Shown here: positions 1 to 12,765 of the stretch, piece after piece
Numbering within the stretch: position 1 is the first letter of the stretch
Layout: each line of letters starts with the position of its first letter
Virus record (IMG/VR): IMGVR_UViG_2529292922_000012
Span: 1-12,765 of that record
Origin: a virus
Lineage: Duplodnaviria; Heunggongvirae; Uroviricota; Caudoviricetes
Direction: 5' to 3' (one strand)
Length of the DNA: 12,765 nt
The notes under the pieces: model-generated
What the model saw: the letters and a program-made list of their open reading frames with translations, nothing else
Told to the model about the DNA's origin: nothing
The model's database searches: none
Program-made: the position numbers and the translations under genes

Positions 1-274
1 GTCCCATTGACCGAATATTAAGATAATGACTTCCTGTTAACCACCCCTGTATGCTTAAGATGACCCTTCCCGCATCCACACCTCGCCCATCATCCCAACC
101 ACGGATAAACTCACCGCGTAAATCCGGTAATTTATTGGTGGGGTAGGCCTTTGCCAGTTTGGGATACATTTCAGAAGAAAATGCTGCACCATTGCATTTT
201 AGCCAGCCCGTTGGTGGTGTTTCTAAGGGCCACGGAACGGGCACACCAACAGGCAGTGCAGAGCCTTCCCCTAA
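1..274 (-). CDS. Tail-fibre C-terminal cassette, 5' part only (continues past the left window edge); no start codon of its own
   Basis: Minus-strand frame open from ~274 to position 1. Translation begins ...LGEGSALPVGVPVPWP...DDGRGVDAGR like the two downstream cassettes, then diverges. Antisense of track ORF 159..362. Confidence 0.6.
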
Positions 275-329
275 ACCAACGTTTTCATGCCGCCCTTACG
301 ATATAATTAAACGCAATGTTACGAGGACG
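69..329. repeat. Direct repeat copy A (~260 bp) spanning a cassette boundary
   Basis: Near-identical to 508..768 at a constant 439-bp offset, with scattered substitutions. Confidence 0.9.
266..291. other. Candidate invertase crossover site (cix/mix/hix-like), copy 1
   Basis: TTCCCCTAAACCAACGTTTTCATGCC. Shares the AAACC-AA-(C/G)GTTT core with recalled hixL (TTCTTGAAAACCAAGGTTTTTGATAA). Sits at the 5' end of a cassette. Confidence 0.5.
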
Positions 330-713
330 AATGGTTACATAATTAACCCCATCACCTCGTGAAGGCCCTGCAAATGAAAAACGGGAAAATCCTGGTTGGT
401 TAGAAACAATTTGGTCATAGTTATTGATTGAATGACCAGACCCAATGTCGAAATTACCTCCGTAATGAGAAAAACTTGTACCATCCTGCCCTGAAAGCAG
501 GGTACGTCCCGCATCAATCCCGCGCCCATCATCCCAGCCACGGATAAATTCACCGCGTAAATCCGGTAATTTATTGGTGGGGTAGGCTTTTGCCAGTTTG
601 GGATACATTTCAGAAGAAAATGCTGCACCATTGCATTTTAGCCAGCCCGTTGGTGGTGTTTCTAAGGGCCACGGAACGGGCACACCAACAGGCAGTGCAG
701 AGCCTTCCCCCAA
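285..713 (-). CDS. Tail-fibre C-terminal variable cassette (collar-like conserved N-part, variable tip, conserved ...RPRNIAFNYIVRAA end)
   Basis: Track ORF, 142 aa. N-terminal ~65 aa near-identical to cassette 724..1185. The 'M' is a TTG inside the crossover-like site; the frame stays open a few codons upstream, so it is probably a 3' gene segment fused to a constant 5' part after inversion. Confidence 0.75.
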   Translation of the reverse strand: MGEGSALPVGVPVPWPLETPPTGWLKCNGAAFSSEMYPKLAKAYPTNKLPDLRGEFIRGWDDGRGIDAGRTLLSGQDGTSFSHYGGNFDIGSGHSINNYDQIVSNQPGFSRFSFAGPSRGDGVNYVTIRPRNIAFNYIVRAA

Positions 714-768
714 ACCAACGTTTTTATGCCGCCCTTACGATATAATTAAAGGCAATATTACGAGGACG
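508..768. repeat. Direct repeat copy B (~260 bp)
   Basis: Aligns with 69..329 and, more divergently, with 982..1197. Confidence 0.9.
705..730. other. Candidate invertase crossover site, copy 2
   Basis: TTCCCCCAAACCAACGTTTTTATGCC. Imperfect dyad around a central AA, same orientation as copy 1. Confidence 0.55.
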
Positions 769-1185
769 GTTTTCATTAGCTGTTGGCACGACACGAGAGG
801 CGTCGAATCCAAGGTCATCGGTTTTGCCTATATCAGTTGTGTTATTCGGCATTCTCGCAGATCGTGTTCCTGCATCATAAAAAGCCCCTCTGATTGCATC
901 AAAAGACATGCCAATCCCGCCATCTGCGAACCCCTCAATATTTCTTATTGCATCCCCCTGTGAAGATAATAATTGTCGCCCGGCATCCACACCACGTCCG
1001 TCATCCCAGCCACGAATAAATTCACCGCGTAAATCCGGCAATTTATTAGTAGGGTAAGCCTTTGCCAGATTTGGGTACTTTTCAGAAGAAAATGCTGCTC
1101 CGTTACATTTCAGCCACCCCGTTGGCGGAGTGGCTGAGGGCCACGGAACAGGTACGCCAACGGGCAGTGCTGAGCCTTCCCCCAA
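724..1185 (-). CDS. Tail-fibre C-terminal variable cassette, proximal to the invertase gene
   Basis: Track ORF, 153 aa. Same conserved N-part (GEGSALPVGVPVPWP..TPPTGWLKCNGAAFSSE..AKAYPTNKLPDLRGEFIRGWDDGRG) and same C-terminal NIAFNYIVRAA as 285..713, with a different middle. Begins at TTG inside the crossover-like site. Confidence 0.75.
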   Translation of the reverse strand: MGEGSALPVGVPVPWPSATPPTGWLKCNGAAFSSEKYPNLAKAYPTNKLPDLRGEFIRGWDDGRGVDAGRQLLSSQGDAIRNIEGFADGGIGMSFDAIRGAFYDAGTRSARMPNNTTDIGKTDDLGFDASRVVPTANENRPRNIAFNYIVRAA

Positions 1186-1197
1186 ACCAACGTTTTA
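982..1197. repeat. Direct repeat copy C (~215 bp, more diverged; homology stops at the crossover-like site)
   Basis: Aligns with copies A and B from 'catcccagccacg' to 'caaaccaacgtttt', then diverges toward the invertase gene. Confidence 0.85.
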
Positions 1198-1203
1198 GTC
1201 TTA
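1178..1203. other. Candidate invertase crossover site, copy 3 (right boundary of the invertible region, ~55 bp upstream of the invertase start)
   Basis: TTCCCCCAAACCAACGTTTTAGTCTT. Repeat homology ends exactly here. Arrangement mirrors gixR-gin and cixR-cin. Confidence 0.55.
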
Positions 1204-1256
1204 ATCCCTACCTATACCAACGATGTATTTTTAACTAAACAAAGAGGTTGTTTTTC

Positions 1257-1829
1257 ATGCAAATTGGCTACATTCGTGTGTCAACAAATGACCAAAACAC
1301 AGATTTACAAAGAAATGCACTGAACTGCGCAGGATGTGAACTGATTTTTGAAGATAAAATAAGCGGAACAAAGTCAGCCAGACCAGGCTTGAAAAAGCTG
1401 CTCAGAACGTTATCAGAAGGAGATACGCTGGTTGTCTGGAAGCTGGATAGGCTTGGCAGAAGTATGAAACACCTTATCACGCTTATAGAGGAGTTGCGGG
1501 AAAAAGGTGTTAATTTCCGTAGTCTGACAGACAGTATTGACACATCAACACCCATGGGGCGTTTCTTTTTTCATGTCATGGGTGCTTTAGCAGAAATGGA
1601 ACGTGAATTAATTGTTGAGAGAACACTGGCCGGACTGGCAGCTGCACGCGAACAGGGACGCATTGGCGGACGTCGCCCGAAGTTGACAAAAGAACAACAT
1701 GAGCAAATAGCGAGGTTGATCGAAAATGGCTACAGCAGGAAACAGTTGGCAATTATTTACGATATCGGTGTATCGACGATTTATCGTTATCATCCTGTAG
1801 AGAAGCGCCAAACTCAATCTGAGCTGTAA
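1257..1829 (+). CDS. cin: Serine recombinase, Hin/Gin/Cin/Pin/Min-family DNA invertase
   Basis: MQIGYIRVSTNDQNTDLQ...VVWKLDRLGRSMKHL...SLTDSIDTSTPMGRFFFHVMGALAEMERELIVERT...GRIGGRRPKL plus C-terminal HTH: canonical invertase motifs with catalytic Ser in IGYIRVST. The track starts at an upstream TTG (1248); I chose the internal ATG, which gives the family-typical N-terminus. Symbol reflects P1-like context. Confidence 0.9.
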   Translation: MQIGYIRVSTNDQNTDLQRNALNCAGCELIFEDKISGTKSARPGLKKLLRTLSEGDTLVVWKLDRLGRSMKHLITLIEELREKGVNFRSLTDSIDTSTPMGRFFFHVMGALAEMERELIVERTLAGLAAAREQGRIGGRRPKLTKEQHEQIARLIENGYSRKQLAIIYDIGVSTIYRYHPVEKRQTQSEL

Positions 1830-1951
1830 TTCTAATGCCGCGTCGGTGTAATTTATCTTGATAGAATAGGTACATTTATCGCGCGGCACATCAATTCGAT
1901 GTATCTAGCGCCTGCTGACCGCTAATGAAAACTGTTCTCGAAATGTTGTCC

Positions 1952-1970
1952 CTAGTCCGAGACTAGGGTA
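1952..1970. repeat. Perfect 8-bp inverted repeat CCCTAGTC-cga-GACTAGGG in the intergenic region
   Basis: Seen directly. No U-tract on either side, so more likely a protein-binding dyad or RNA structure than an intrinsic terminator. Confidence 0.4.
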
Positions 1971-2264
1971 TCACCTCTGGAAAGCATACGCAGAACCTTT
2001 TTTAACCCAGGGTGCCCAGCTTTTTTGCTGCTCGCCTTATTCGCAAAAATTAGCTCACATCCTGCGCTTTCAAGTGCTTTTCACTGCATAGCTGTGTTTT
2101 GTTCATTTGTCTATATGCGTACATAGCCTATTAGCATATTTTCTGCCCACTATCGTTATTTATTGCAAGCTACAGGTTTTAATTAACAAAACCAGTGTGT
2201 GTGGAAATCACAAAGTGCATACCGTTCTCAAATGTTGTTCAACTTACTGTTGTATAGGTAAAAA

Positions 2265-2528
2265 ATGACATTTTATGTACATATCGTGATGTTATCCCTT
2301 CTTGGTGGGGTGTATTCGTATTTGAGTGGGCTATGTGAAAACCGTTACGAGTCTTCATGCAAGAAATTGCTGGCCGAATGTATTTCCGCCGTACTTGCTG
2401 GCTTTATTGGCATGTATCTCGCGGAATATAAGGACATGAATGAAAGCCTTCAGAGCTGCATGGTTCTTATTTTCAGCGCCAATAGCAGGCTTATTATTGA
2501 AGGTTCCAAAAGTCGGTTGAATAGGTAA
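2265..2528 (+). CDS. Hypothetical small protein with two hydrophobic segments
   Basis: Track ORF, 87 aa. Weak SD (AGGT ~9 nt upstream). Hydrophobic stretches IVMLSLLGGVYSYLSGL and ISAVLAGFIGMYLA. No recognised family. Confidence 0.3.
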   Translation: MTFYVHIVMLSLLGGVYSYLSGLCENRYESSCKKLLAECISAVLAGFIGMYLAEYKDMNESLQSCMVLIFSANSRLIIEGSKSRLNR

Positions 2529-2602
2529 GTCTCTTATGCAACATAACCGGTTGAGAAGTTACTTTGCATACCATTACCTCCTGACAACGTAGGAGGGAAC
2601 TT

Positions 2603-2932
2603 GTGCTTGACACACAGGAATTAGCTCCAGTTGCTATTGCGCTCCTGCTTTCAGTAATTGGTGGGATAGGCACGTTCCTGATGGATGTCCGAGACGGTCG
2701 CCAGTCTGGCAATTTGTTGGGATTGGTTACGGAGATCTTTGTTGCAGTGACAGCTGGCGCGGTGGCGTACCTATTGGGGCAACACGAGGGCTGGGAGTTA
2801 TCAATTACGTACTTAATGGTAACGATAGCCAGCAATAACGGTCATGAGGTGATTTCAGGGATGAAACGAGTGAATATCGATAGCATTCTGAATGTTCTTA
2901 CAAGTTTGGTGAAAAAGGGAGGCGGGAAATGA
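2603..2932 (+). CDS. lydA: Holin-like small membrane protein; LydA-like first gene of the lysis/dar operon
   Basis: Strong SD AGGAGGG 6 nt before GTG start. 109 aa with 2-3 predicted TM segments and a charged C-terminus (KKGGGK), which is holin architecture. Position after cin matches my recollection of P1. Confidence 0.55.
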   Translation: MLDTQELAPVAIALLLSVIGGIGTFLMDVRDGRQSGNLLGLVTEIFVAVTAGAVAYLLGQHEGWELSITYLMVTIASNNGHEVISGMKRVNIDSILNVLTSLVKKGGGK

Positions 2933-3372
2933 TTGGCTGGGGTGTATGCGTTCTTGCGTTAGCCTTAGCCGATCGCTATTTGCTAAAACGCAAGGACATC
3001 ACGCATTTAGAACTTGGTGATGTGGAAATTAAACCGGGTTTCATCCGGGTGCCGTTCAAATACCGGTCTAAATTCCCGTTTTTGCGCGGCGCAACGGTCA
3101 GATATTGGATCCGCGATGTTCAGAAGCCGACGACAGTGATTGAAGGCGAACAACGTTGTTTGACGTCGGCTGAACAGGGCGAAAACAGTGAATGGTTGTA
3201 CATACCCACTGAATATATGGGTAAAGGAGAGCGACTGTGGCATTTCAACGTCATGGTTACGCATGGCGACTCGTTCATTAACCCGTTGTATCGGATTTTC
3301 CCTGTTACTCAGCAAATCCGCAGAAGTTACGTAATAAATCTCGCACAGGATGTGTCAGATGACGAAAAATAA
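2929..3372 (+). CDS. lydB: LydB-like protein (putative holin antagonist) with N-terminal hydrophobic segment
   Basis: ATGA overlap with the preceding stop. SD GGGAGG. 147 aa. Named by synteny only. Confidence 0.45.
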   Translation: MIGWGVCVLALALADRYLLKRKDITHLELGDVEIKPGFIRVPFKYRSKFPFLRGATVRYWIRDVQKPTTVIEGEQRCLTSAEQGENSEWLYIPTEYMGKGERLWHFNVMVTHGDSFINPLYRIFPVTQQIRRSYVINLAQDVSDDEK

Positions 3373-3961
3373 GTATGCAACGGTCGATTTTGACCAGGTT
3401 AATGAAAAGGGGCTGAAATCCCTTATCGCGGCGATCAATAAAACCGGTGTTACGGTAATTGAGGTTGACTCCAGCAACCGCGCAACAACGAAAGATGGCG
3501 TTAAAGTTAAAACCGCAAAGCTGGTTCTTAACGACGGACAAATTCTTGCCATACAGGTAAACGATACTGGCGATATATCGTCTGTGAGGCTGAATGGAAA
3601 AGCTATTCCTAACGCTCAGTCGCCGGATATCAAGACGCTTGGTACCGTCATGGGGCAAGCGGCCCGCAAAAACTCCGCAAAATTCCAGAAATCACTGATC
3701 GCCAAAGCGAAACGTGTTGCCAATCCGGTAGACAAGAAACCGGCAGTAAAATCCAACTTTCAGCGCCTGCAAGAGGCAAAACAGCGGAATGCTCAGGTGG
3801 TTGCCGCTTATAAATCAGCGCAGAACTCGGTGTCTTTCAATCAACAGCAGATCACTGATTTGCGGGCGAAGCTGGATAAGGAGACAGGCCGACTCAATAA
3901 CGAAAAGGCCCGAAATGGCGAACTCAAACGCCGTCTTAAGCAACTGAAAGCAGGAAATTAA
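3359..3961 (+). CDS. hdf: Hdf-like protein (homologue of a DarA fragment), coiled-coil C-terminus
   Basis: Shares a segment with the next protein (..ARKNSAKFQKSLIAKAK.. versus ..AEKNSAKFQRAQKKKKA..), also visible at DNA level. Start ambiguous: 3350 or 3359; overlaps the lydB 3' end. Confidence 0.6.
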   Translation: MTKNKYATVDFDQVNEKGLKSLIAAINKTGVTVIEVDSSNRATTKDGVKVKTAKLVLNDGQILAIQVNDTGDISSVRLNGKAIPNAQSPDIKTLGTVMGQAARKNSAKFQKSLIAKAKRVANPVDKKPAVKSNFQRLQEAKQRNAQVVAAYKSAQNSVSFNQQQITDLRAKLDKETGRLNNEKARNGELKRRLKQLKAGN

Positions 3962-3962
3962 C

Positions 3963-5882
3963 ATGGAACAGTTCAATATCAATAAAGGGGTGACGATCAA
4001 GCCTGGGCTTGACGTGCTTCCCCCGCCAGTGACTGATGATGAATATCGCGCATTAATGGCCGGTGAGGACCGCTATCTGATGACGGAATCCAACACCCTG
4101 GAGGAAATCGAGGCTACGTTCTTCTATGACACGCCGATCCACTGGTGTGCTACGGATTTACTGGAGGCGATTAGTTCTACTCGTTTGCAGTTACACCGGA
4201 CCATGCAGGCATTTGTCCGGGCATTGAACCAGAAGCTGAATGGTACCGGAATCTCTGCGGGGAGTGATAAAACGGGGGATGTGGCCCAGAGCGGCGCGCG
4301 CGCGATCGGCGGTGCTGAAATTGGCCGGGCACGTAACGTTAACGGGCTGCCGGTCCTGCCAGCCATTATTCCGCTCAGTGATGGTCAGACTATCAGCATT
4401 CTGTTTCATAGCCCGACAGCGGAAAACCGGATCACCAATAGCGATACGCTGGTTGCTTTCCAGTTCTTACTGAATAAAAAAGACGTTACTCACACCGTTG
4501 CTCCGATGAGTGGACGTGATATGACGCTGGCGCAGGTCACCATGAAACTTGCCAACCTTGCAGAGAAAAACTCGGCAAAATTTCAGCGTGCGCAGAAGAA
4601 GAAAAAAGCCCTTGTTGATGAAATAACCCAACTACAGGCTGACAGTGACCAGAAAGAGGATGCCATGAGCGACCTCGTGGATCAGGTGGCAGCGGTAGAA
4701 GGGCAGAAGGTAGATCTGGAGCAGAAAATTAACGCTGTTGCATCGGAAGCGGATTCTCTTTATGAAGAGAATGAGCGTTTGCAGACGGAGATTGATCAGC
4801 TCAATCGCACTGGTGGGCGCGATACCATTGCTCCTGCGGGGATGACTGGTGGACACTCTCGCGCGATGACGGATCGCCTTGCCAGTATCAAAAATCGTAT
4901 GCATATGAACGGGGAAGTGACGCTCAGTAATGGTGCATCAATGAAGCAATTCATTGAGGACGGCGAAGGGTATATCCAGTTAACCGATTCGGATGGCAGC
5001 GTGTACATGATCAAGGCTAAATCCATACAGGGTGTGGACATGGCAGATGCGATCGGCAAGCTGTTTAAAGCCTATAAAGCGGGTAATGTATCGGAATACC
5101 TGGTCCAACCAGAAGAACATAAACCGGAAAACGTCGAACCTGAACCAGCGGAGGATACCGGTAGCTCTTCGCCTGAACCAGAAGTCTCTGTAGGTGCATA
5201 TCGATATGCCCTGCAAATGCGTCCGGCGGCCCCTGGCGCAATACCTGAAGGTAACAAAGCAATTCTGCCGCGCCCTGATGAAGGTGACCCGTATTATGAA
5301 TATGCACGCTACGGCATTGCTACTTACGATACCCCGCTTTCTGATCAGCAAATGAGTGAGTACGACCTGAAGTTATTGCCTCGCGAGGATTCTTTCGACT
5401 TCCTGGCGAAGACACTTACTAATGGTCCGTTTGGCAAATATGCACAAAAAGCTCTGGAGCTGGCCACCAGCTCACCAGACGAGTTCCGCGTAATGCTGAA
5501 AACTCAGTTTCAAAAAACTTTCCCCAATATTGCGTTTCCGGGGGGCGCTGGCACCGAGAAAATGGTGCAGAGCATGATCAATGCATTGCAGGCCGAAGTC
5601 GGTGAGATTACTCAGCCAGAACCTGCCCCGGCACAGCCTGATGAAACGGTTAGCGAAGCAGATGCAGAGGCTAATAAAGCCATTGAATATCTCAATAACG
5701 TGATGGATATGCAAAGCACTGACATGGCGGAGATCCGTAACGCCCGGGGTAATGTCCGGGAAGCGATTGCAGCCCTTCAGGCTGCCGGGCGTTTTGAGGA
5801 AAACGAAGAGCTGGTTAATGGCGCTGCTCGCCACTTGGCTGATCTGCTGGTAGCAATCCAGAAAGCGGGGGTAGCGGCATGA
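3963..5882 (+). CDS. darA: DarA-like anti-restriction / head-internal protein
   Basis: 639 aa. ATG 2 nt after the hdf stop, with SD AGGAA. Central coiled coil, Pro/Glu-rich linker. Named from size, position and paralogy with hdf. Confidence 0.6.
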   Translation: MEQFNINKGVTIKPGLDVLPPPVTDDEYRALMAGEDRYLMTESNTLEEIEATFFYDTPIHWCATDLLEAISSTRLQLHRTMQAFVRALNQKLNGTGISAGSDKTGDVAQSGARAIGGAEIGRARNVNGLPVLPAIIPLSDGQTISILFHSPTAENRITNSDTLVAFQFLLNKKDVTHTVAPMSGRDMTLAQVTMKLANLAEKNSAKFQRAQKKKKALVDEITQLQADSDQKEDAMSDLVDQVAAVEGQKVDLEQKINAVASEADSLYEENERLQTEIDQLNRTGGRDTIAPAGMTGGHSRAMTDRLASIKNRMHMNGEVTLSNGASMKQFIEDGEGYIQLTDSDGSVYMIKAKSIQGVDMADAIGKLFKAYKAGNVSEYLVQPEEHKPENVEPEPAEDTGSSSPEPEVSVGAYRYALQMRPAAPGAIPEGNKAILPRPDEGDPYYEYARYGIATYDTPLSDQQMSEYDLKLLPREDSFDFLAKTLTNGPFGKYAQKALELATSSPDEFRVMLKTQFQKTFPNIAFPGGAGTEKMVQSMINALQAEVGEITQPEPAPAQPDETVSEADAEANKAIEYLNNVMDMQSTDMAEIRNARGNVREAIAALQAAGRFEENEELVNGAARHLADLLVAIQKAGVAA

Positions 5883-6244
5883 CACTATCAGCTATTGAGT
5901 TAATGGATCTCAGCGATAAGTTGGATGCTTTGATGTCCAAAGCGGCTACCGCGAGTGGCATGGAGTTGCTGGATATCAGCGATGAAATTGACCAGATCAT
6001 GCAACAGATGGGGTACGGTGTGTCCGGCGGCAGTAGTGGCGAGGAAAAACAACCTTCGGTACATGATGGTGTGCCAAAACTGGTTGCTGATTTCCTGGCT
6101 GATAAATTCGTCGATCAGAGCACCGATGCATTTATCGGTACCTTGCAGGATTTGAGTCAATATGTTGGCACATACATCGACCTGGACCAGGTTAAACAGC
6201 ACACGGCGGCATGGATAGCCGCCAACATTAAAGAGGCAGCATAA
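5879..6244 (+). CDS. ddrA: DdrA-like small acidic protein
   Basis: ATGA overlap with the darA stop. 121 aa. Named by synteny. Confidence 0.5.
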   Translation: MTLSAIELMDLSDKLDALMSKAATASGMELLDISDEIDQIMQQMGYGVSGGSSGEEKQPSVHDGVPKLVADFLADKFVDQSTDAFIGTLQDLSQYVGTYIDLDQVKQHTAAWIAANIKEAA

Positions 6245-6256
6245 GGCGTAACAGGG

Positions 6257-9244
6257 ATGAGCTTAAGCGATCAGGTGGTAATGGCCACCAGCATAGAAAC
6301 GCTGATCGAGCTGCTAAAGAACCTGCCCGATTATGGGCGGGTTTCGTATGTGGTGACAGCGAAGGGAGACGAGGTAAAAACAGCGTTTGATATCGTCGAT
6401 GCCTCAGCTCTTTTGGTATCCAATACTCTGGATGGGAAAATTAATCCTGACTATCCCCAGGAACTTCAGCCGCGCGACCGGACCCGCGCATCCAGCCTTC
6501 TTCAGGTTAACCAGATATCCAAAGATTTGCGGCCTGCTCAGCTTACTGATTCCGGTTTATCCAGCCATGGTGCGCCGATAATTGGTGAGGACAATGCCGT
6601 TGAGTCTGGTAATGGACGGACCATGGGGATCATCAAAGCCTATCAGGACGGCAATGCGGATCGGTATCGTGAGTACCTGATTGATCATGCGACCGAATTC
6701 GGCATACGACCTGAAAAGGTTGAATCAATGACGGCTCCGGTACTGGTGCGCCGCCGGTTAACCAAGGTTGACCGCGTTCAGTTTGCCAAGGACTCAAATA
6801 TTTCTGATCTTCAGGAAATGGCAGCCAGTGAAAAGGCTTTTGTTGATGCCGACAGCATAACACCGGCGATGATGGCGCTTTTTAACCCGTCAGAAAGCGG
6901 AGATCTGCTTAGCCGCAGTAATGACGCGTTTATTCGCGGATTTATGACGCAAGTTGGTGCCACACAGGCGGCTGGCCTTGTAACGGAAGATGGGCGACCA
7001 ACGCGGCAACTTGTTGACCGTATACAAAACGCGATCTTTGCCAAGGCATATAAGGATGCGCGCCTGGTAAGGATGGTTGCAGAAGAACCTGATCCGGATA
7101 TGCGTAATGTTCTGACGGCGCTTAATGCGGCAGCCAATGATTTTGTCCAGATGCAGGCTTTATCAGGAGAAGCGCACAAGCAGGCTGTGACAACTATTGT
7201 TGATGGCATTGAGACAGCGGATAGCCTCGATAAAAAGGCGCTGGCGGCATTGAAAGATGCGGTAGACCTGGTAAGGCAATCGAAGGAGTCAGGCCAGCAT
7301 ATTACCGATGTTATTGCTCAGGGGGATATGTTCAGCGAAACGGCCCCGGAAGTGAAAGCACTCGCGTTGTTCATCGTCGCGAATAACCGTAGCGCGAAGC
7401 GTATGGCCACCGCCTTTAAGTTGATGGCTCAACGTATCAATGATGAGTTACAGCACCAGGGCCAGGCGCTGGGGGATATGTTTGGCGGTGGTGATGTGTC
7501 GTTACAGGATATCCTTCGCCAGGTGTCTCAGGAACTGGAAAACGAAGGCATGCAAGGGATATCCGGCGGTCTTTTCGAGTCCGTTTCCGGCGGTAGTTAC
7601 AATGGTGTTGCTCCATATACCAGTTTGCTATTACATCGGGCATCCGGCATCAAAGACATTATTCATCTGATCAGGCTGCTTTCCCGTACAGATCCCCAGG
7701 ATGAACAGCTTGTACAAGTGCTTGCGCATTTTGTTCGAATGCCTGTTGCCGACGTGAAAAAATGGTGCCGATTATTCGGTATCAGCAATTCGTTACTTCG
7801 CGGCTTGTTAAATCACGCATCCTCCCTTGGGCGCGATGGCTTTGACGAGATAGCGCAGGCGATAAAAAACGGAGATATGCCACCAGCTATTGACTGGTTT
7901 TCCATTCGCCCAACCAGGGTGAAAGCATTCCTTAGCGCGGCGCATTCGGCATCACCATTGGCAGAAATGGTTCAGAGGTTGTCGCTCATATTCACAGACC
8001 ATACCGCGTTGGGTGATCTGACTCTGGACGAGATGAAAGAAGCCTCCATTCAGTGGGCCGATCAACAAAATGAGGTTAACTCTGACTTCTTGCCAGCATT
8101 CAGGAAGGCCGTTAGTAAAGCGGATGATGCCCGTGGAATTCTGAGGGCATTTAAGGCATTGCAAAGTCAGGTTAATAAACATGTCGGTGATATCGATGGG
8201 GTAACGGCGGAAGGCAGGGATATCCTTAAAGAGCACGGCATAACGCCAGAGTTTATTGATGAGATCAGGACTGATATGCAGCGTGAGGTCGTATCGTCCC
8301 TGCAAATCGTAGCCAGAGCGTTGGCGGATGCTAATCCGAAGAGTGCGGCCATTGTTAACCGTGTTATTGGTGATATTGAAGCATCGGAGGGCATGGGGGC
8401 GCTGAAACTCTTCCTTTCGCGAGCGTTTAATCCTAACGGCAATATTCTCCCCGGCATTATTGGTGAGGCTAAAAAGTATGTCAGCGAAGAAGAACTTGAG
8501 CAGCTTGACCAACTACTTAAGCGATTCTCATATAACCCGCAGACACGCTGGCAAATGAATCAGCGAAGTATGGGTTCGGTCCACGAGAAAGTGTTATCTG
8601 CCATGAACAGTGCGATCGCAAACTCATCCGTATCTGAAGAAAAAGCTCTTGAGTGGGCCGACTCTTTTATCACGGAAGAAGTGGAAGAAGCCCGCGCTGG
8701 ACAGAATGGTGGGATAGACCTGCGCAAGGAACTTGCTGATATTTATCGCCTGACCGGCGGGAAAATATCGACATTATCAAAGGTAGTTCACCACCAGGGA
8801 AGGGCATATGCAAATCTTAATGGTGTTGTTGCTGTCAATTTGAACGATGAAAATGCAAGTGCACTGTGGCACGAGCTGGGTCATCATCTTGAGTACAGTA
8901 ACCCTGGTTTGTTAGAGAAAGCCCGGTCATTCCTGAAGGCCAATGTTGAAGGGGATAAGCCATCTTTCGTCAATATCGGTGGGCGTGGCAAGCCTGAATG
9001 GTGCTTCAGATCTCGATTGAGTAATATTTATATGGCGAAGGTATACCCGCCAGCCTCAGTAAGTAACACCGGGAAAATTCGGCAGAAATCACCGACTATT
9101 TCCAAAACGTCAGCAACGGAAGTATTCTCTATGGCTCTTCAGTTGTATCATGACAAAGAGGCCGCTGCCGCATCACTGATGAATGGTGACGGATTGCTGG
9201 AACTGTTATTAGGTGTGGCAAAGGAGCTAAATAATGCAGATTAA
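6257..9244 (+). CDS. ddrB: DdrB-like large protein: ParB/Srx-like N-terminal signature plus C-terminal HExxH (zincin-like) motif
   Basis: 995 aa. ELQPRDR...GAPIIGEDNAVESGNGRTMGI resembles ParB boxes (QPR / GxxR). HELGHH at aa 872-877 (nt 8870-8887). Long helical middle. Confidence 0.6.
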   Translation: MSLSDQVVMATSIETLIELLKNLPDYGRVSYVVTAKGDEVKTAFDIVDASALLVSNTLDGKINPDYPQELQPRDRTRASSLLQVNQISKDLRPAQLTDSGLSSHGAPIIGEDNAVESGNGRTMGIIKAYQDGNADRYREYLIDHATEFGIRPEKVESMTAPVLVRRRLTKVDRVQFAKDSNISDLQEMAASEKAFVDADSITPAMMALFNPSESGDLLSRSNDAFIRGFMTQVGATQAAGLVTEDGRPTRQLVDRIQNAIFAKAYKDARLVRMVAEEPDPDMRNVLTALNAAANDFVQMQALSGEAHKQAVTTIVDGIETADSLDKKALAALKDAVDLVRQSKESGQHITDVIAQGDMFSETAPEVKALALFIVANNRSAKRMATAFKLMAQRINDELQHQGQALGDMFGGGDVSLQDILRQVSQELENEGMQGISGGLFESVSGGSYNGVAPYTSLLLHRASGIKDIIHLIRLLSRTDPQDEQLVQVLAHFVRMPVADVKKWCRLFGISNSLLRGLLNHASSLGRDGFDEIAQAIKNGDMPPAIDWFSIRPTRVKAFLSAAHSASPLAEMVQRLSLIFTDHTALGDLTLDEMKEASIQWADQQNEVNSDFLPAFRKAVSKADDARGILRAFKALQSQVNKHVGDIDGVTAEGRDILKEHGITPEFIDEIRTDMQREVVSSLQIVARALADANPKSAAIVNRVIGDIEASEGMGALKLFLSRAFNPNGNILPGIIGEAKKYVSEEELEQLDQLLKRFSYNPQTRWQMNQRSMGSVHEKVLSAMNSAIANSSVSEEKALEWADSFITEEVEEARAGQNGGIDLRKELADIYRLTGGKISTLSKVVHHQGRAYANLNGVVAVNLNDENASALWHELGHHLEYSNPGLLEKARSFLKANVEGDKPSFVNIGGRGKPEWCFRSRLSNIYMAKVYPPASVSNTGKIRQKSPTISKTSATEVFSMALQLYHDKEAAAASLMNGDGLLELLLGVAKELNNAD

Positions 9245-9545
9245 AATCGCAGCGCCATTAGGCGGAGATGCCATTATCGAATTTGATGATAATGAAGAAG
9301 TTTCCGGGCGTTTAAGCATTATCTCCGGTGACATTACCGAGGACATGATCGCTGAAGCCATAGCTGGGGCAAATCCCAATAGCTATATGGGATTCGTTAA
9401 CACCCTTGATGCTCCCGCAAGTGATGTTCTCCGAACGCTGCATCTTTACGCTGGCTGGTTTGTTGATTGGCCAGCAGTAGATGGTGGCGATGAGGACGAC
9501 GACGACGATGATTTTGGTGATCATGTAGACCAGATCGTATATTGA
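9234..9545 (+). CDS. Small protein with highly acidic C-terminus, translationally coupled to ddrB
   Basis: ATG overlaps the ddrB 3' end. SD AAGGAG 7 nt upstream. 103 aa ending DGGDEDDDDDDFGDHVDQIVY. Last gene before the terminator. Confidence 0.55.
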   Translation: MQIKIAAPLGGDAIIEFDDNEEVSGRLSIISGDITEDMIAEAIAGANPNSYMGFVNTLDAPASDVLRTLHLYAGWFVDWPAVDGGDEDDDDDDFGDHVDQIVY

Positions 9546-9574
9546 AGAAATCCCGCCAATTGGCGGGATTTTTA
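9546..9574. terminator. Bidirectional rho-independent terminator between convergent genes
   Basis: AAATCCCGCC-aatt-GGCGGGATTT 10-bp GC-rich stem followed by a T-run on the + strand and ATTTCTTC on the - strand. Lies exactly between the stops at 9545 and 9577. Confidence 0.7.
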
Positions 9575-9576
9575 CC

Positions 9577-10663
9577 TCACGAGAAACTCTTTTCTGATGT
9601 CAGCCAACAGTGCTCGTGCATATCTCTTGGTGGTTTTTCGACAAATGCCTCTTCAGCCACATCCTGCCAGGGGATTTGTTTAGCCCATTCAGTTATAGCG
9701 TTATGGTTTGCCGAGAATAACGGTATTGTATAGGCCTTCAGCCAGTCTAATGTGCTGGAGTTGTGTTTTTGAGCGTGATGTTTCGCATGGTGTTTGGCGA
9801 TCACGATCGTAGGCACTACCCATTTACTACCGTCAGTCATTGTGAAGTGCATATTACGGGGAACAGATGACTTTTCCATCAACTCCCGAATCCCGGGGAA
9901 TTTCCCCAAGATCAATCGGCGATATTCATCGCTATTGCGTCCACCAAACTCTTTGGCTTTGAATTCAAGATATGCTTCAGAAACGAGAGGTGAATCCTCT
10001 GTGTTTAGAGTTATCGCCGTGAAAAAACCAGCAGGATTGTTTTTACTATGGGCCAACCGGTGATGCGAATCATAAAAGTACCCTTTCTCGCGTTCCGATG
10101 GTTTCGACAGCAACAGCAGGCGCGAGTCATAATTGGTTAAATTGCCAGTTATCACTGCATGAGCGCGATCGCTGATTTCCGCCGAGTTAATAACGATGAA
10201 AAGATCGTGCGGTCCAGTAAAACCAGCCAGAGACTCTTCGTTATTCAGACAATAGGTTATATAGACGCATCCCCATGTTTCACTGATATGCACCAACCCT
10301 TTGTCAGGGTGTATTCTGAAATAATTGCCAAGAAAAGGGTGTTTTTGGGTAACTCGCTCCCAATAACGGAACATATAGTCAATTATTGTTTTTCGACTAT
10401 CGTTAATCGCAGGAGAAACAACCACTGTACGGGAACACGAATACAGTATTGTTTGCAGGATGCTAATCACTGCCACAATAGAGGTTTCCCCAATACCATG
10501 TGGTGTGGTGGCAGTGACTTTGGCTCCGGTGTTCTTTATCGCGTTAATAATTTTTGCTTGATGAGGTGTTAACTCAATATCAAGCAACTCTTTTGCTGCC
10601 AGTTCCCAATTGTCTTTATACCGTTCTATCAGTGCTAACCAGGCAGATTCATTCTGTATACGA

Positions 10664-10671
<8 letters not shown>
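9577..10671 (-). CDS. Terminase-large-subunit-like P-loop ATPase-domain protein with degenerate Walker A/B; no nuclease domain apparent
   Basis: Track ORF, 364 aa, GTG start with SD GAGGTGG. Motif order PHQ...TTPHGIGETS...DLFIVINSAE...LLLLSKPSE resembles the adenine-Q / Walker A / Walker B / C-motif layout of terminase ATPases as I recall it. His-rich patch AKHHAKHHAQKH. Confidence 0.5.
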
Positions 10672-12764
<2,093 letters not shown>

Positions 12765-12765
12765 G

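Follow-up and report, generated by a model that had tools for sequence, protein, structure and literature searches.

DdrB of a P1-like prophage: a packaged protein with ParB/Srx and zincin-like domains

Introduction

The window, a stretch of 12,765 nucleotides covering positions 1 to 12,765 of the Caudoviricetes record IMGVR_UViG_2529292922_000012, contains a long open reading frame (ORF) whose product carries ParB-like motifs near the N-terminus and an HExxH motif near the C-terminus. A sequence-only reading had proposed it as a candidate injected polyvalent effector. This raises the question of what the protein is, and what its two ends do. The explanation that we favor, and consider very probable as a whole, is that the ORF encodes DdrB of bacteriophage P1, a three-part, packaged Dar protein that would process itself by autoproteolysis and whose ParB/Srx domain would act in the host after infection.

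Gene identity and genomic context

The ORF list and its translation place the gene at 6257..9244 on the plus strand, exactly as given by the sequence-only reading, with an ATG start and the stop codon included; the product has 995 aa and a mass of 108.7 kDa. It is identical to P1 DdrB (YP_006491.1) at 984 of 995 positions in a gap-free, full-length alignment, and none of the 11 substitutions falls on a conserved catalytic position. At the DNA level, ddrB is 98.6% identical to P1 and 98.2–99.1% identical to 19 records of P1-like phages. The phrog_2299 match spans the protein from end to end (1–995 of 995).

The neighborhood is that of P1 as well. PHROG matches and the P1 annotation yield the gene order lydA-lydB-hdf-darA-ddrA-ddrB-hxr, the same as in P1, with ddrB in sixth place in the late darA operon. 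Expression of the operon is driven by the late promoter LPdar (2556..2574, plus strand), whose sequence is identical to the annotated −22 and −10 region of P1 LPdar. The upstream Dar partners occupy 3350..6244 on the plus strand and comprise hdf (3350–3961, Hdf-like family), darA (3963–5882, DarA family), and ddrA (5879–6244, DdrA-like family), all assigned by PHROG matches and the P1 annotation. Downstream, hxr (9234..9545, plus strand; ORF list, phrog_2292, and annotated as Hxr in P1) overlaps the ddrB stop by 11 nt. The ORF is thus the same gene as in P1, with 99% identity over all 995 residues and the same operon and promoter, and we identify it as the ddrB gene of a plasmid prophage of the P1 type (Punavirus, IncY). 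The flanks of the operon differ from P1: upstream lies a multiple-inversion tail-fiber region, and downstream, a different ORF and an IS21-family element.

The operon is also retained around a DdrB orthologue with 45% identity, which is adjoined by hdf-darA-ddrA in the same order; farther downstream, this locus also carries a giant gene resembling darB.

Publications already cover the gene with its two domains, its virion packaging, and its Dar membership, and the protein is therefore not the new candidate that the sequence-only reading took it for. Iyer, Burroughs, Anand, de Souza and Aravind (2017; PMC5512222) described P1 DdrB as the prototype of a DdrB-like ParB clade, used it as an example of a polyvalent protein whose C-terminal domain is a metallopeptidase (MPTase), and published both its domain architecture and its proposed autoproteolysis. 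The GenBank record of P1 already labels DdrB a "possible metallopeptidase". As a discovery the locus carries little weight; P1 genetics makes the activities of DdrB easy to test.

N-terminal ParB/Srx domain

Residues 36–167 (6362..6757, plus strand) form a DdrB-like ParB/Srx domain. The Pfam family PF18763 (ddrB-ParB) matches it with 134.9 bits against a gathering cut-off of 27.6 (E = 2.1e-39; profile positions 2–120 of 121), and the modeled N-terminus has an alpha+beta fold matching ParB/Srx structures, which bears out the ParB/Srx-like signature noticed in the sequence. Both motifs behind that suggestion are present. ELQPRDR, expected at about 6461–6480, is found at 6461..6481 (plus strand; residues 69–75), with L70, Q71, P72, R73, and R75 invariant. 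ESGNGRTMGI is also there, but its position had been given slightly off, at about 6608–6630; the correct one is 6602..6631 (plus strand; residues 116–125), and E116 to R121 are invariant. The QPR and GNGR motifs are retained in all twelve aligned ParB domains. In the structure model, a strand (114–117) is followed by a helix (119–130), which is opened by GNGR.

DdrB-like ParB domains have a conserved arginine in the pocket and a conserved tyrosine in an extra helix (Iyer 2017, PMC5512222). Both features are found here: R121, Y129, and Y137 are invariant (12/12 sequences), and R121 is the predicted conserved active-site arginine.

The fold is like that of the ParB/Srx superfamily, including KorB, the N-terminal domain of pNOB8 ParB, PadC, sulfiredoxin, and the SerK/SbnI kinases, although sequence comparison detects no similarity either to ParB proteins of known structure or to the ParB of P1 itself. 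A PDB sequence search with the ParB profile returned nothing meaningful, and hhalign of this profile against P1's own ParB revealed no similarity (probability 0.2%). Unlike partition ParB, DdrB has neither a helix-turn-helix nor a dimerization domain, and therefore is not a partition protein.

Central helical region

Residues 168–774 (6758..8578, plus strand) are all-helical in the structure model and contain no recognized domain. The model is of low confidence here (pLDDT mostly 45–65), with low-confidence linkers at residues 294–307, 435–453, 711–735, and 757–766. Pfam gave nothing above the cut-off for the middle 572 aa. Matches to phrog_5143 and phrog_14693 cover residues ~14–502, and in phage proteins of larger size residues ~170–500 occur along with the ParB domain.

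C-terminal predicted metallopeptidase domain

The C-terminal part (residues 775–995; 8579..9241, plus strand) is a zincin-like domain, probably a metallopeptidase of the gluzincin type. The HELGHH sequence lies where it had been reported, at 8870–8887 (residues 872–877), and is the sole HExxH in DdrB. Conservation and the model identify the active-site motif as HELGH (8870..8884, plus strand), with H872, E873, and H876 on helix 868–881. By itself such a motif is weak evidence, since 2.6% of 20,000 shuffles of DdrB carry an HExxH. However, H872, E873, and H876 are retained in 153 of 153 remote homologues covering the site, and this settles the question of chance. These homologues come from an exhaustive HMMER search of a library clustered at 50% identity, which alone reached the remote relatives; a word-indexed search with the C-terminal third yielded near-identical fragments only. 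HExxH is invariant in all three alignments (A1, A2, and A3). The AlphaFold model of the domain (mean pLDDT 92.5) has a zincin fold, with three strands preceding the HExxH helix. Structure prediction, which the sequence-only reading had proposed as a check, returned the anticipated fold at both ends of the protein.

The alignment of the peptidase domain has nine invariant residues, and the conserved set includes HExxH, E879, E914, Y925, Y930, and E955. The third metal ligand had been sought in glutamates 14 and 26 positions downstream of the motif. Both are located there, as E887 (~14–15 on) and E898 (26 on), but their role as ligands is rejected, as they are conserved in only 11/33 and 6/33 sequences, respectively. 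The probable third ligand, judging from the alignment and the model, is E955: it is invariant, like E879 and E914, and begins the segment E955-V-F-S958 (9119..9130, plus strand; S958 at least 90% conserved) at the start of helix 956–962. This segment, a probable glutamate-helix motif, agrees with the gluzincin rule (E,H)xx(A,F,T,S,G) quoted in PMC7213743.

Despite the zincin fold, the domain belongs to no curated Pfam family, as all scans remained below threshold. Residues 741–995 matched no family at E ≤ 10 except for one chance match, and none above the cut-off, while scans of 33 homologous C-terminal domains gave scattered sub-threshold zincin matches only; ATLF/M34, Zincin_1, Reprolysin, and Peptidase_M91 did not reach their gathering cut-offs. 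NCBIfam and PADLOC had no matches to DdrB. PDB searches with the whole protein and with the C-terminal profile returned nothing meaningful, the latter giving a weak match (E = 0.39) to a botulinum-like toxin across the HExxH region. Relatives of the domain nevertheless fall into at least 390 clusters when grouped at 50% identity; hundreds of relatives thus lack a curated profile.

Among solved structures, the fold is closest to Pro-Pro endopeptidases and anthrax lethal factor, enzymes that are secreted or injected and cut specific substrates. The sequence identity to these M34-type zincins (PPEP-2, PPEP-3, and lethal factor) is only 13–15%, and Pfam ATLF matches a single one of the 33 domain members (E = 0.03). 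The DdrB domain differs from them by its own invariant set, R849, E879, E914, Y925, and Y930, and an insert between two helices; moreover, DdrB is an internal head protein and not a secreted enzyme.

With a ParB/Srx and a zincin domain combined in a single ORF of this P1-like prophage, and delivery taken from the literature, DdrB is a polyvalent protein. Its two modules are found recombined with Mu F, InPase, LPD3, and DarA_N neighbors, as described for polyvalent proteins (Iyer 2017, PMC5512222), from which DdrB is no different in kind. Pfam models the ParB part of these proteins (PF18763); in our scans no Pfam model matched the MPTase domain.

DdrB in the virion and its processing

In purified P1 virions, DdrB was detected with 39 unique peptides and 59.5% coverage (PMC9024508). 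It belongs to the six proteins of the Dar (defense against restriction) system; their packaging is ordered and interdependent, and they are reportedly co-ejected with DNA (PMC12810830). These two papers agree with the earlier suggestion of a packaged counter-defense factor. In P1, packaging of DdrB into the head depends on Hdf and DarA, and DarB confers protection from EcoB and EcoK, both of them type I restriction systems. DdrB is dispensable for plaque formation (PMC10695390).

A DdrB form of ~76 kDa has been reported in virions. We suggest that the peptidase domain would cut DdrB itself, probably in a disordered linker, yielding this form and detaching the protease from the ParB module. Once inside a newly infected cell, the ParB/Srx domain may then serve to bind or hydrolyze nucleotides or, less likely, as a nuclease, the roles proposed by Iyer et al. 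(2017, PMC5512222). The fragment itself is ambiguous, because residues 1–700 and residues 300–995 both have a computed mass of ~76 kDa. The supplement of PMC9024508 contains no peptide map for DdrB that would show the packaged part. The 59.5% coverage, calculated over the full 995 aa, would be very high if only ~700 residues were packaged, a point against our favored explanation.

Processing of DdrB also need not be autocatalytic. P1 has a prohead protease, Pro, that resembles T4 gp21 and cuts gp23 between AMLE and SVAA, and DdrB has similar sequences in low-confidence linkers, with possible cuts between GLFE441 and SVSG and between IIGE737 and AKK. As neither cleavage (between E441 and S or between E737 and A) would give a product of exactly 76 kDa, cutting by Pro at these sites stays speculation. 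A protein processed by Pro in this way could serve chiefly in assembly, or as an adaptor, inside the head and assist in loading DarB, its catalytic domains being irrelevant to the known phenotype. We regard this as somewhat unlikely. [quoted passage not shown] The resemblance of the candidate sites in flexible linkers to the mapped gp23 site also speaks for it, as does the fact that DarA is believed to be proteolytically processed too. However, HExxH, E955, R121, and other residues are invariant in relatives with less than 50% identity, which suggests selection for enzymatic activity and not for a scaffold alone, and each of the two modules, ParB and peptidase, is found again in many other domain arrangements.

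Instead of, or besides, processing DdrB, the peptidase domain could be an injected effector that cleaves a host protein, for example a type I restriction subunit or another defense protein. Iyer et al. (2017, PMC5512222) named this possibility for the metallopeptidases of polyvalent proteins; we consider it improbable for DdrB. The kinship in fold to secreted and injected endopeptidases favors it, together with the reported co-ejection of Dar proteins (PMC12810830) and the virion peptide coverage, which is compatible with the presence of the C-terminal part (PMC9024508). A parallel is ArdC of plasmid R388 (PMC7213743), comprised of a ssDNA-binding domain and a gluzincin metalloprotease and needed to overcome hsdRMS restriction; like DdrB, ArdC is linked to antirestriction, is encoded by a mobile element, and has at its C-terminus a gluzincin-type domain with HExxH and an ExxS/A-type motif, the latter probable in DdrB. 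By contrast, the action of Dar is confined to DNA packaged along with it, in cis (PMC12707154), arguing against a freely diffusing protease that inactivates a host enzyme, and assistance in DarB loading is the only role listed for DdrB (PMC9024508).

More improbable still is a wider version of this proposal, namely, that the domain represents a large zincin clade missed by Pfam and NCBIfam, nearest in structure to the M34 group of Pro-Pro endopeptidases and lethal factor and marked by its own set of residues (R849, HExxHxxE, E914, Y925, Y930, and E955), which in P1 might be injected and, as a sequence-specific endopeptidase, attack a host defense protein, beyond trimming DdrB. Since Iyer et al. 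(2017) had already raised this possibility for such domains, novelty would be limited to its demonstration and the substrate.

Finally, the notion that the motifs are chance matches in a featureless protein, for which the occurrence of HExxH alone in 2.6% of shuffles and the lack of a curated family at the C-terminus could be cited, is refuted by the N-terminal Pfam match (E = 2e-39), the HExxH in 153/153 homologues, and the high-confidence zincin and ParB/Srx folds.

Annotation and distribution

An antisense ORF within ddrB is annotated in P1 as iddB (6811..7209, minus strand). It has no PHROG match, and in the 45%-identity ddrB orthologue the open frame survives only for the C-terminal 76 aa; iddB probably is not a gene. 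The RefSeq annotation of ddrB trails the literature: in the complete E. coli genomes examined as best matches, it is labeled "hypothetical protein". The gene itself is present in 483 of 5,426 complete E. coli genomes.

Identity and Genomic Context of DdrB

The sequence-only reading had described a 995-aa ORF at window positions 6257-9244, with a ParB/Srx-like N-terminus and a C-terminal HExxH, as a candidate injected polyvalent effector. The ORF is confirmed (995 codons, + strand, ATG start) and encodes phage P1 DdrB, which gave its name to the domain family recognized in that reading. The protein is identical to P1 DdrB (YP_006491.1) at 984 of 995 residues, the corresponding P1 gene being annotated as ddrB, while the DNA shows 98.2-99.1% identity over the full length to 19 P1-like phage records. 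The genes around it are the P1 darA operon in the P1 order: lydA (2603-2932), lydB (2929-3372), hdf (3350-3961), darA (3963-5882), ddrA (5879-6244), ddrB (6257-9244), and hxr (9234-9545). The late promoter LPdar has the same sequence as in P1, and window positions ~68-10810 match IncY P1-like plasmid prophages of E. coli and Klebsiella. Among 5,426 complete E. coli genomes, 483 carry ddrB, nearly always on plasmids.

Neither the gene nor its reading is new. The "DdrB-like ParB domain" was defined from P1 DdrB, and the C-terminal zincin-like MPTase identified in it, by Iyer et al. (2017; PMC5512222). The P1 GenBank record labels the protein "possible metallopeptidase", and the best-matching complete E. 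coli records "hypothetical protein". In the P1 literature, ddrB is expressed late, its product depends on Hdf and DarA for packaging, and it is linked to type I antirestriction.

Two further observations concern the operon. DarA (3963-5882, +) has weak PADLOC matches to LmuB, JetC, and PbeC (E 5e-05 to 2.5e-03, residues ~155-288), which most likely reflect coiled-coil composition, not homology. Within ddrB, the P1 annotation has an antisense ORF of 132 aa, iddB (6811-7209, -), which has no PHROG match and is probably not a real gene; in L003, a 45%-identical DdrB orthologue, it is open only over the part matching the C-terminal 76 aa.

Domain Architecture

All three motifs named from the sequence alone are present in the translated ORF: ELQPRDR (residues 69-75, nt 6461-6481), ESGNGRTMGI (residues 116-125), and HELGHH (residues 872-877, nt 8870-8887). 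For the second, the coordinates had been a few bases off, as it lies at nt 6602-6631.

Residues 36-167 match the Pfam family PF18763, "ddrB-like ParB superfamily domain", named after DdrB (134.9 bits, cut-off 27.6; E = 2.1e-39). Across 12 aligned domains of this type, L70-Q71-P72-R73, R75, E116-S-G-N-G-R121, Y129, and Y137 are invariant. The region is confident in the full-length AlphaFold model, with strand 114-117 leading into GNGR at a helix start. Sequence methods yielded no solved relative, nor any sequence similarity to P1's own ParB. The ParB/Srx assignment is supported at the family and fold level.

The C-terminal domain was not recognized by Pfam, NCBIfam, or PADLOC. HELGHH is the sole HExxH in the protein, and such a motif arises in 2.6% of shuffles of the DdrB sequence, so that conservation, and not the motif alone, carries the argument. 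An exhaustive HMMER search with residues 741-995 against 1.84 billion cluster representatives produced 390 homologues at E <= 0.001, and HExxH is kept in all 153 that span the site. Aligning 33 sequences with 24-43% identity to the query, we found R849, H872, E873, H876, E879, E914, Y925, Y930, and E955 to be invariant, and H877, S958, and G986 almost so. In the model, the HExxH helix comes after three short strands, the arrangement expected of a zincin. By fold, the domain resembles MtfA (6.8) and the lethal-factor-like domains found in Certhrax, anthrax lethal factor, and edema factor (6.1-6.9), with M32 and M1 peptidases and Wss1/Spartan next.

The earlier interpretation is supported, except for the choice of the third metal ligand. 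E887 and E898, proposed for this role, are rejected because of poor conservation (11/33 and 6/33). The invariant E955, at a helix start in E-V-F-S, agrees with the "glutamate helix" rule for gluzincins, (E,H)xx(A,F,T,S,G) (PMC7213743), and is a candidate third ligand.

The middle region (residues ~168-774) is predicted to be all-helical with low model confidence, and searches gave it no match to a family or fold. Its residues ~170-500 also occur alongside the ParB domain in phage proteins of phrog_5143 and phrog_14693. Low-confidence linkers lie at residues 294-307, 435-453, 711-735, and 757-766.

Relatives and Domain Shuffling

The 45%-identical orthologue is full-length, and its operon is the same one, with lydB, hdf, and darA, then a gene of ddrA size, ddrB itself, and a gene of hxr size; a darB-like giant gene lies further downstream in this locus. 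Of 136 peptidase-domain representatives from outside P1, only 13 also have the ParB domain; other proteins bear Mu F, InPase, LPD3, or portal domains, and one peptidase-only protein is flanked by an InPase + DarA_N protein on one side and a giant SNF2-helicase protein on the other. Domain shuffling of this kind has been described for polyvalent proteins.

Two sequences outside the window are of note. In P0029, a 1378-aa relative, the same peptidase domain comes after a tandem pair of DdrB-ParB domains. P0011, a 1009-aa DdrB allele in public data, is ~99% identical from residue ~197 on, but in place of the ParB domain it has a charged N-terminus of ~210 aa, rich in Lys, Arg, Glu, and Ala and without Pfam matches; either a natural swap of domains or an artefact of assembly or recombination may explain it.

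Packaging, Processing, and Possible Function

Profile searches, structure prediction, and virion mass spectrometry, suggested as checks by the sequence-only reading, all came out in its favour, here or in the literature. DdrB was detected in purified virions by 39 unique peptides (59.5% coverage), its listed role being to help add DarB to the capsid (Gonzales et al., 2022; PMC9024508). A 2026 structural paper places it among six Dar proteins packaged in order and co-ejected as a group with the DNA, and connects it with the system's EcoB/EcoK arm (PMC12810830). It is non-essential for plaque formation on the laboratory K-12 host E. coli BW25113 (PMC10695390).

Earlier work cited by Iyer et al. 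(2017; PMC5512222) reported processing of DdrB to a 76-kDa form before packaging, and these authors proposed autoproteolysis and suggested a role for the ParB domain in sensing or degrading nucleotides at an early stage of infection. Beyond the identity, architecture, conserved catalytic residues, and both folds established here, the predicted activities would be cleavage of DdrB itself by the peptidase domain and, once the cell is infected, action of the ParB/Srx module on nucleotides or DNA. A mass of ~76 kDa is computed for both residues 1-700 and residues 300-995, and given the peptide coverage, virions may hold more than a 700-residue fragment.

Processing by the prohead protease Pro is a live alternative to autoproteolysis. 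This T4 gp21-like enzyme cuts P1 gp23 at AMLE|SVAA, and the flexible, low-confidence linkers of DdrB hold GLFE441|SVSG and IIGE737|AKK, which resemble this mapped maturation site and make E441|S442 (window 7577-7582) and E737|A738 (8465-8470) candidate sites. It is also possible that the peptidase domain is an effector against host proteins, although this is not easy to square with Dar acting only in cis (PMC12707154).

Window Flanks

Upstream of the operon, two tail-fibre C-terminal cassettes with Collar domains (285-713 and 724-1185, - strand) are followed by a Cin-like serine invertase (1248-1829, +), and matching plasmids carry six such cassettes. Positions 285-1829 are a p15B/D6-style multiple-inversion region, whereas P1 has a simple C-segment.

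In place of the isaB/IS1 region of P1, the window has a 363-aa ORF (9577-10671, -). It has no match in Pfam, NCBIfam, or PADLOC, but matches phrog_5902 (unknown function) and, weakly (3.7e-09), part of a PHROG large-terminase family. The gene that follows it in related plasmids appears truncated to a 58-aa remnant (10664-10840, -). Similarity to P1-like plasmids ends at 10810, and positions 10811-12765 belong to an IS21-family element with an istA-like transposase (10897-11919) and an IstB ATPase (11916-12698).
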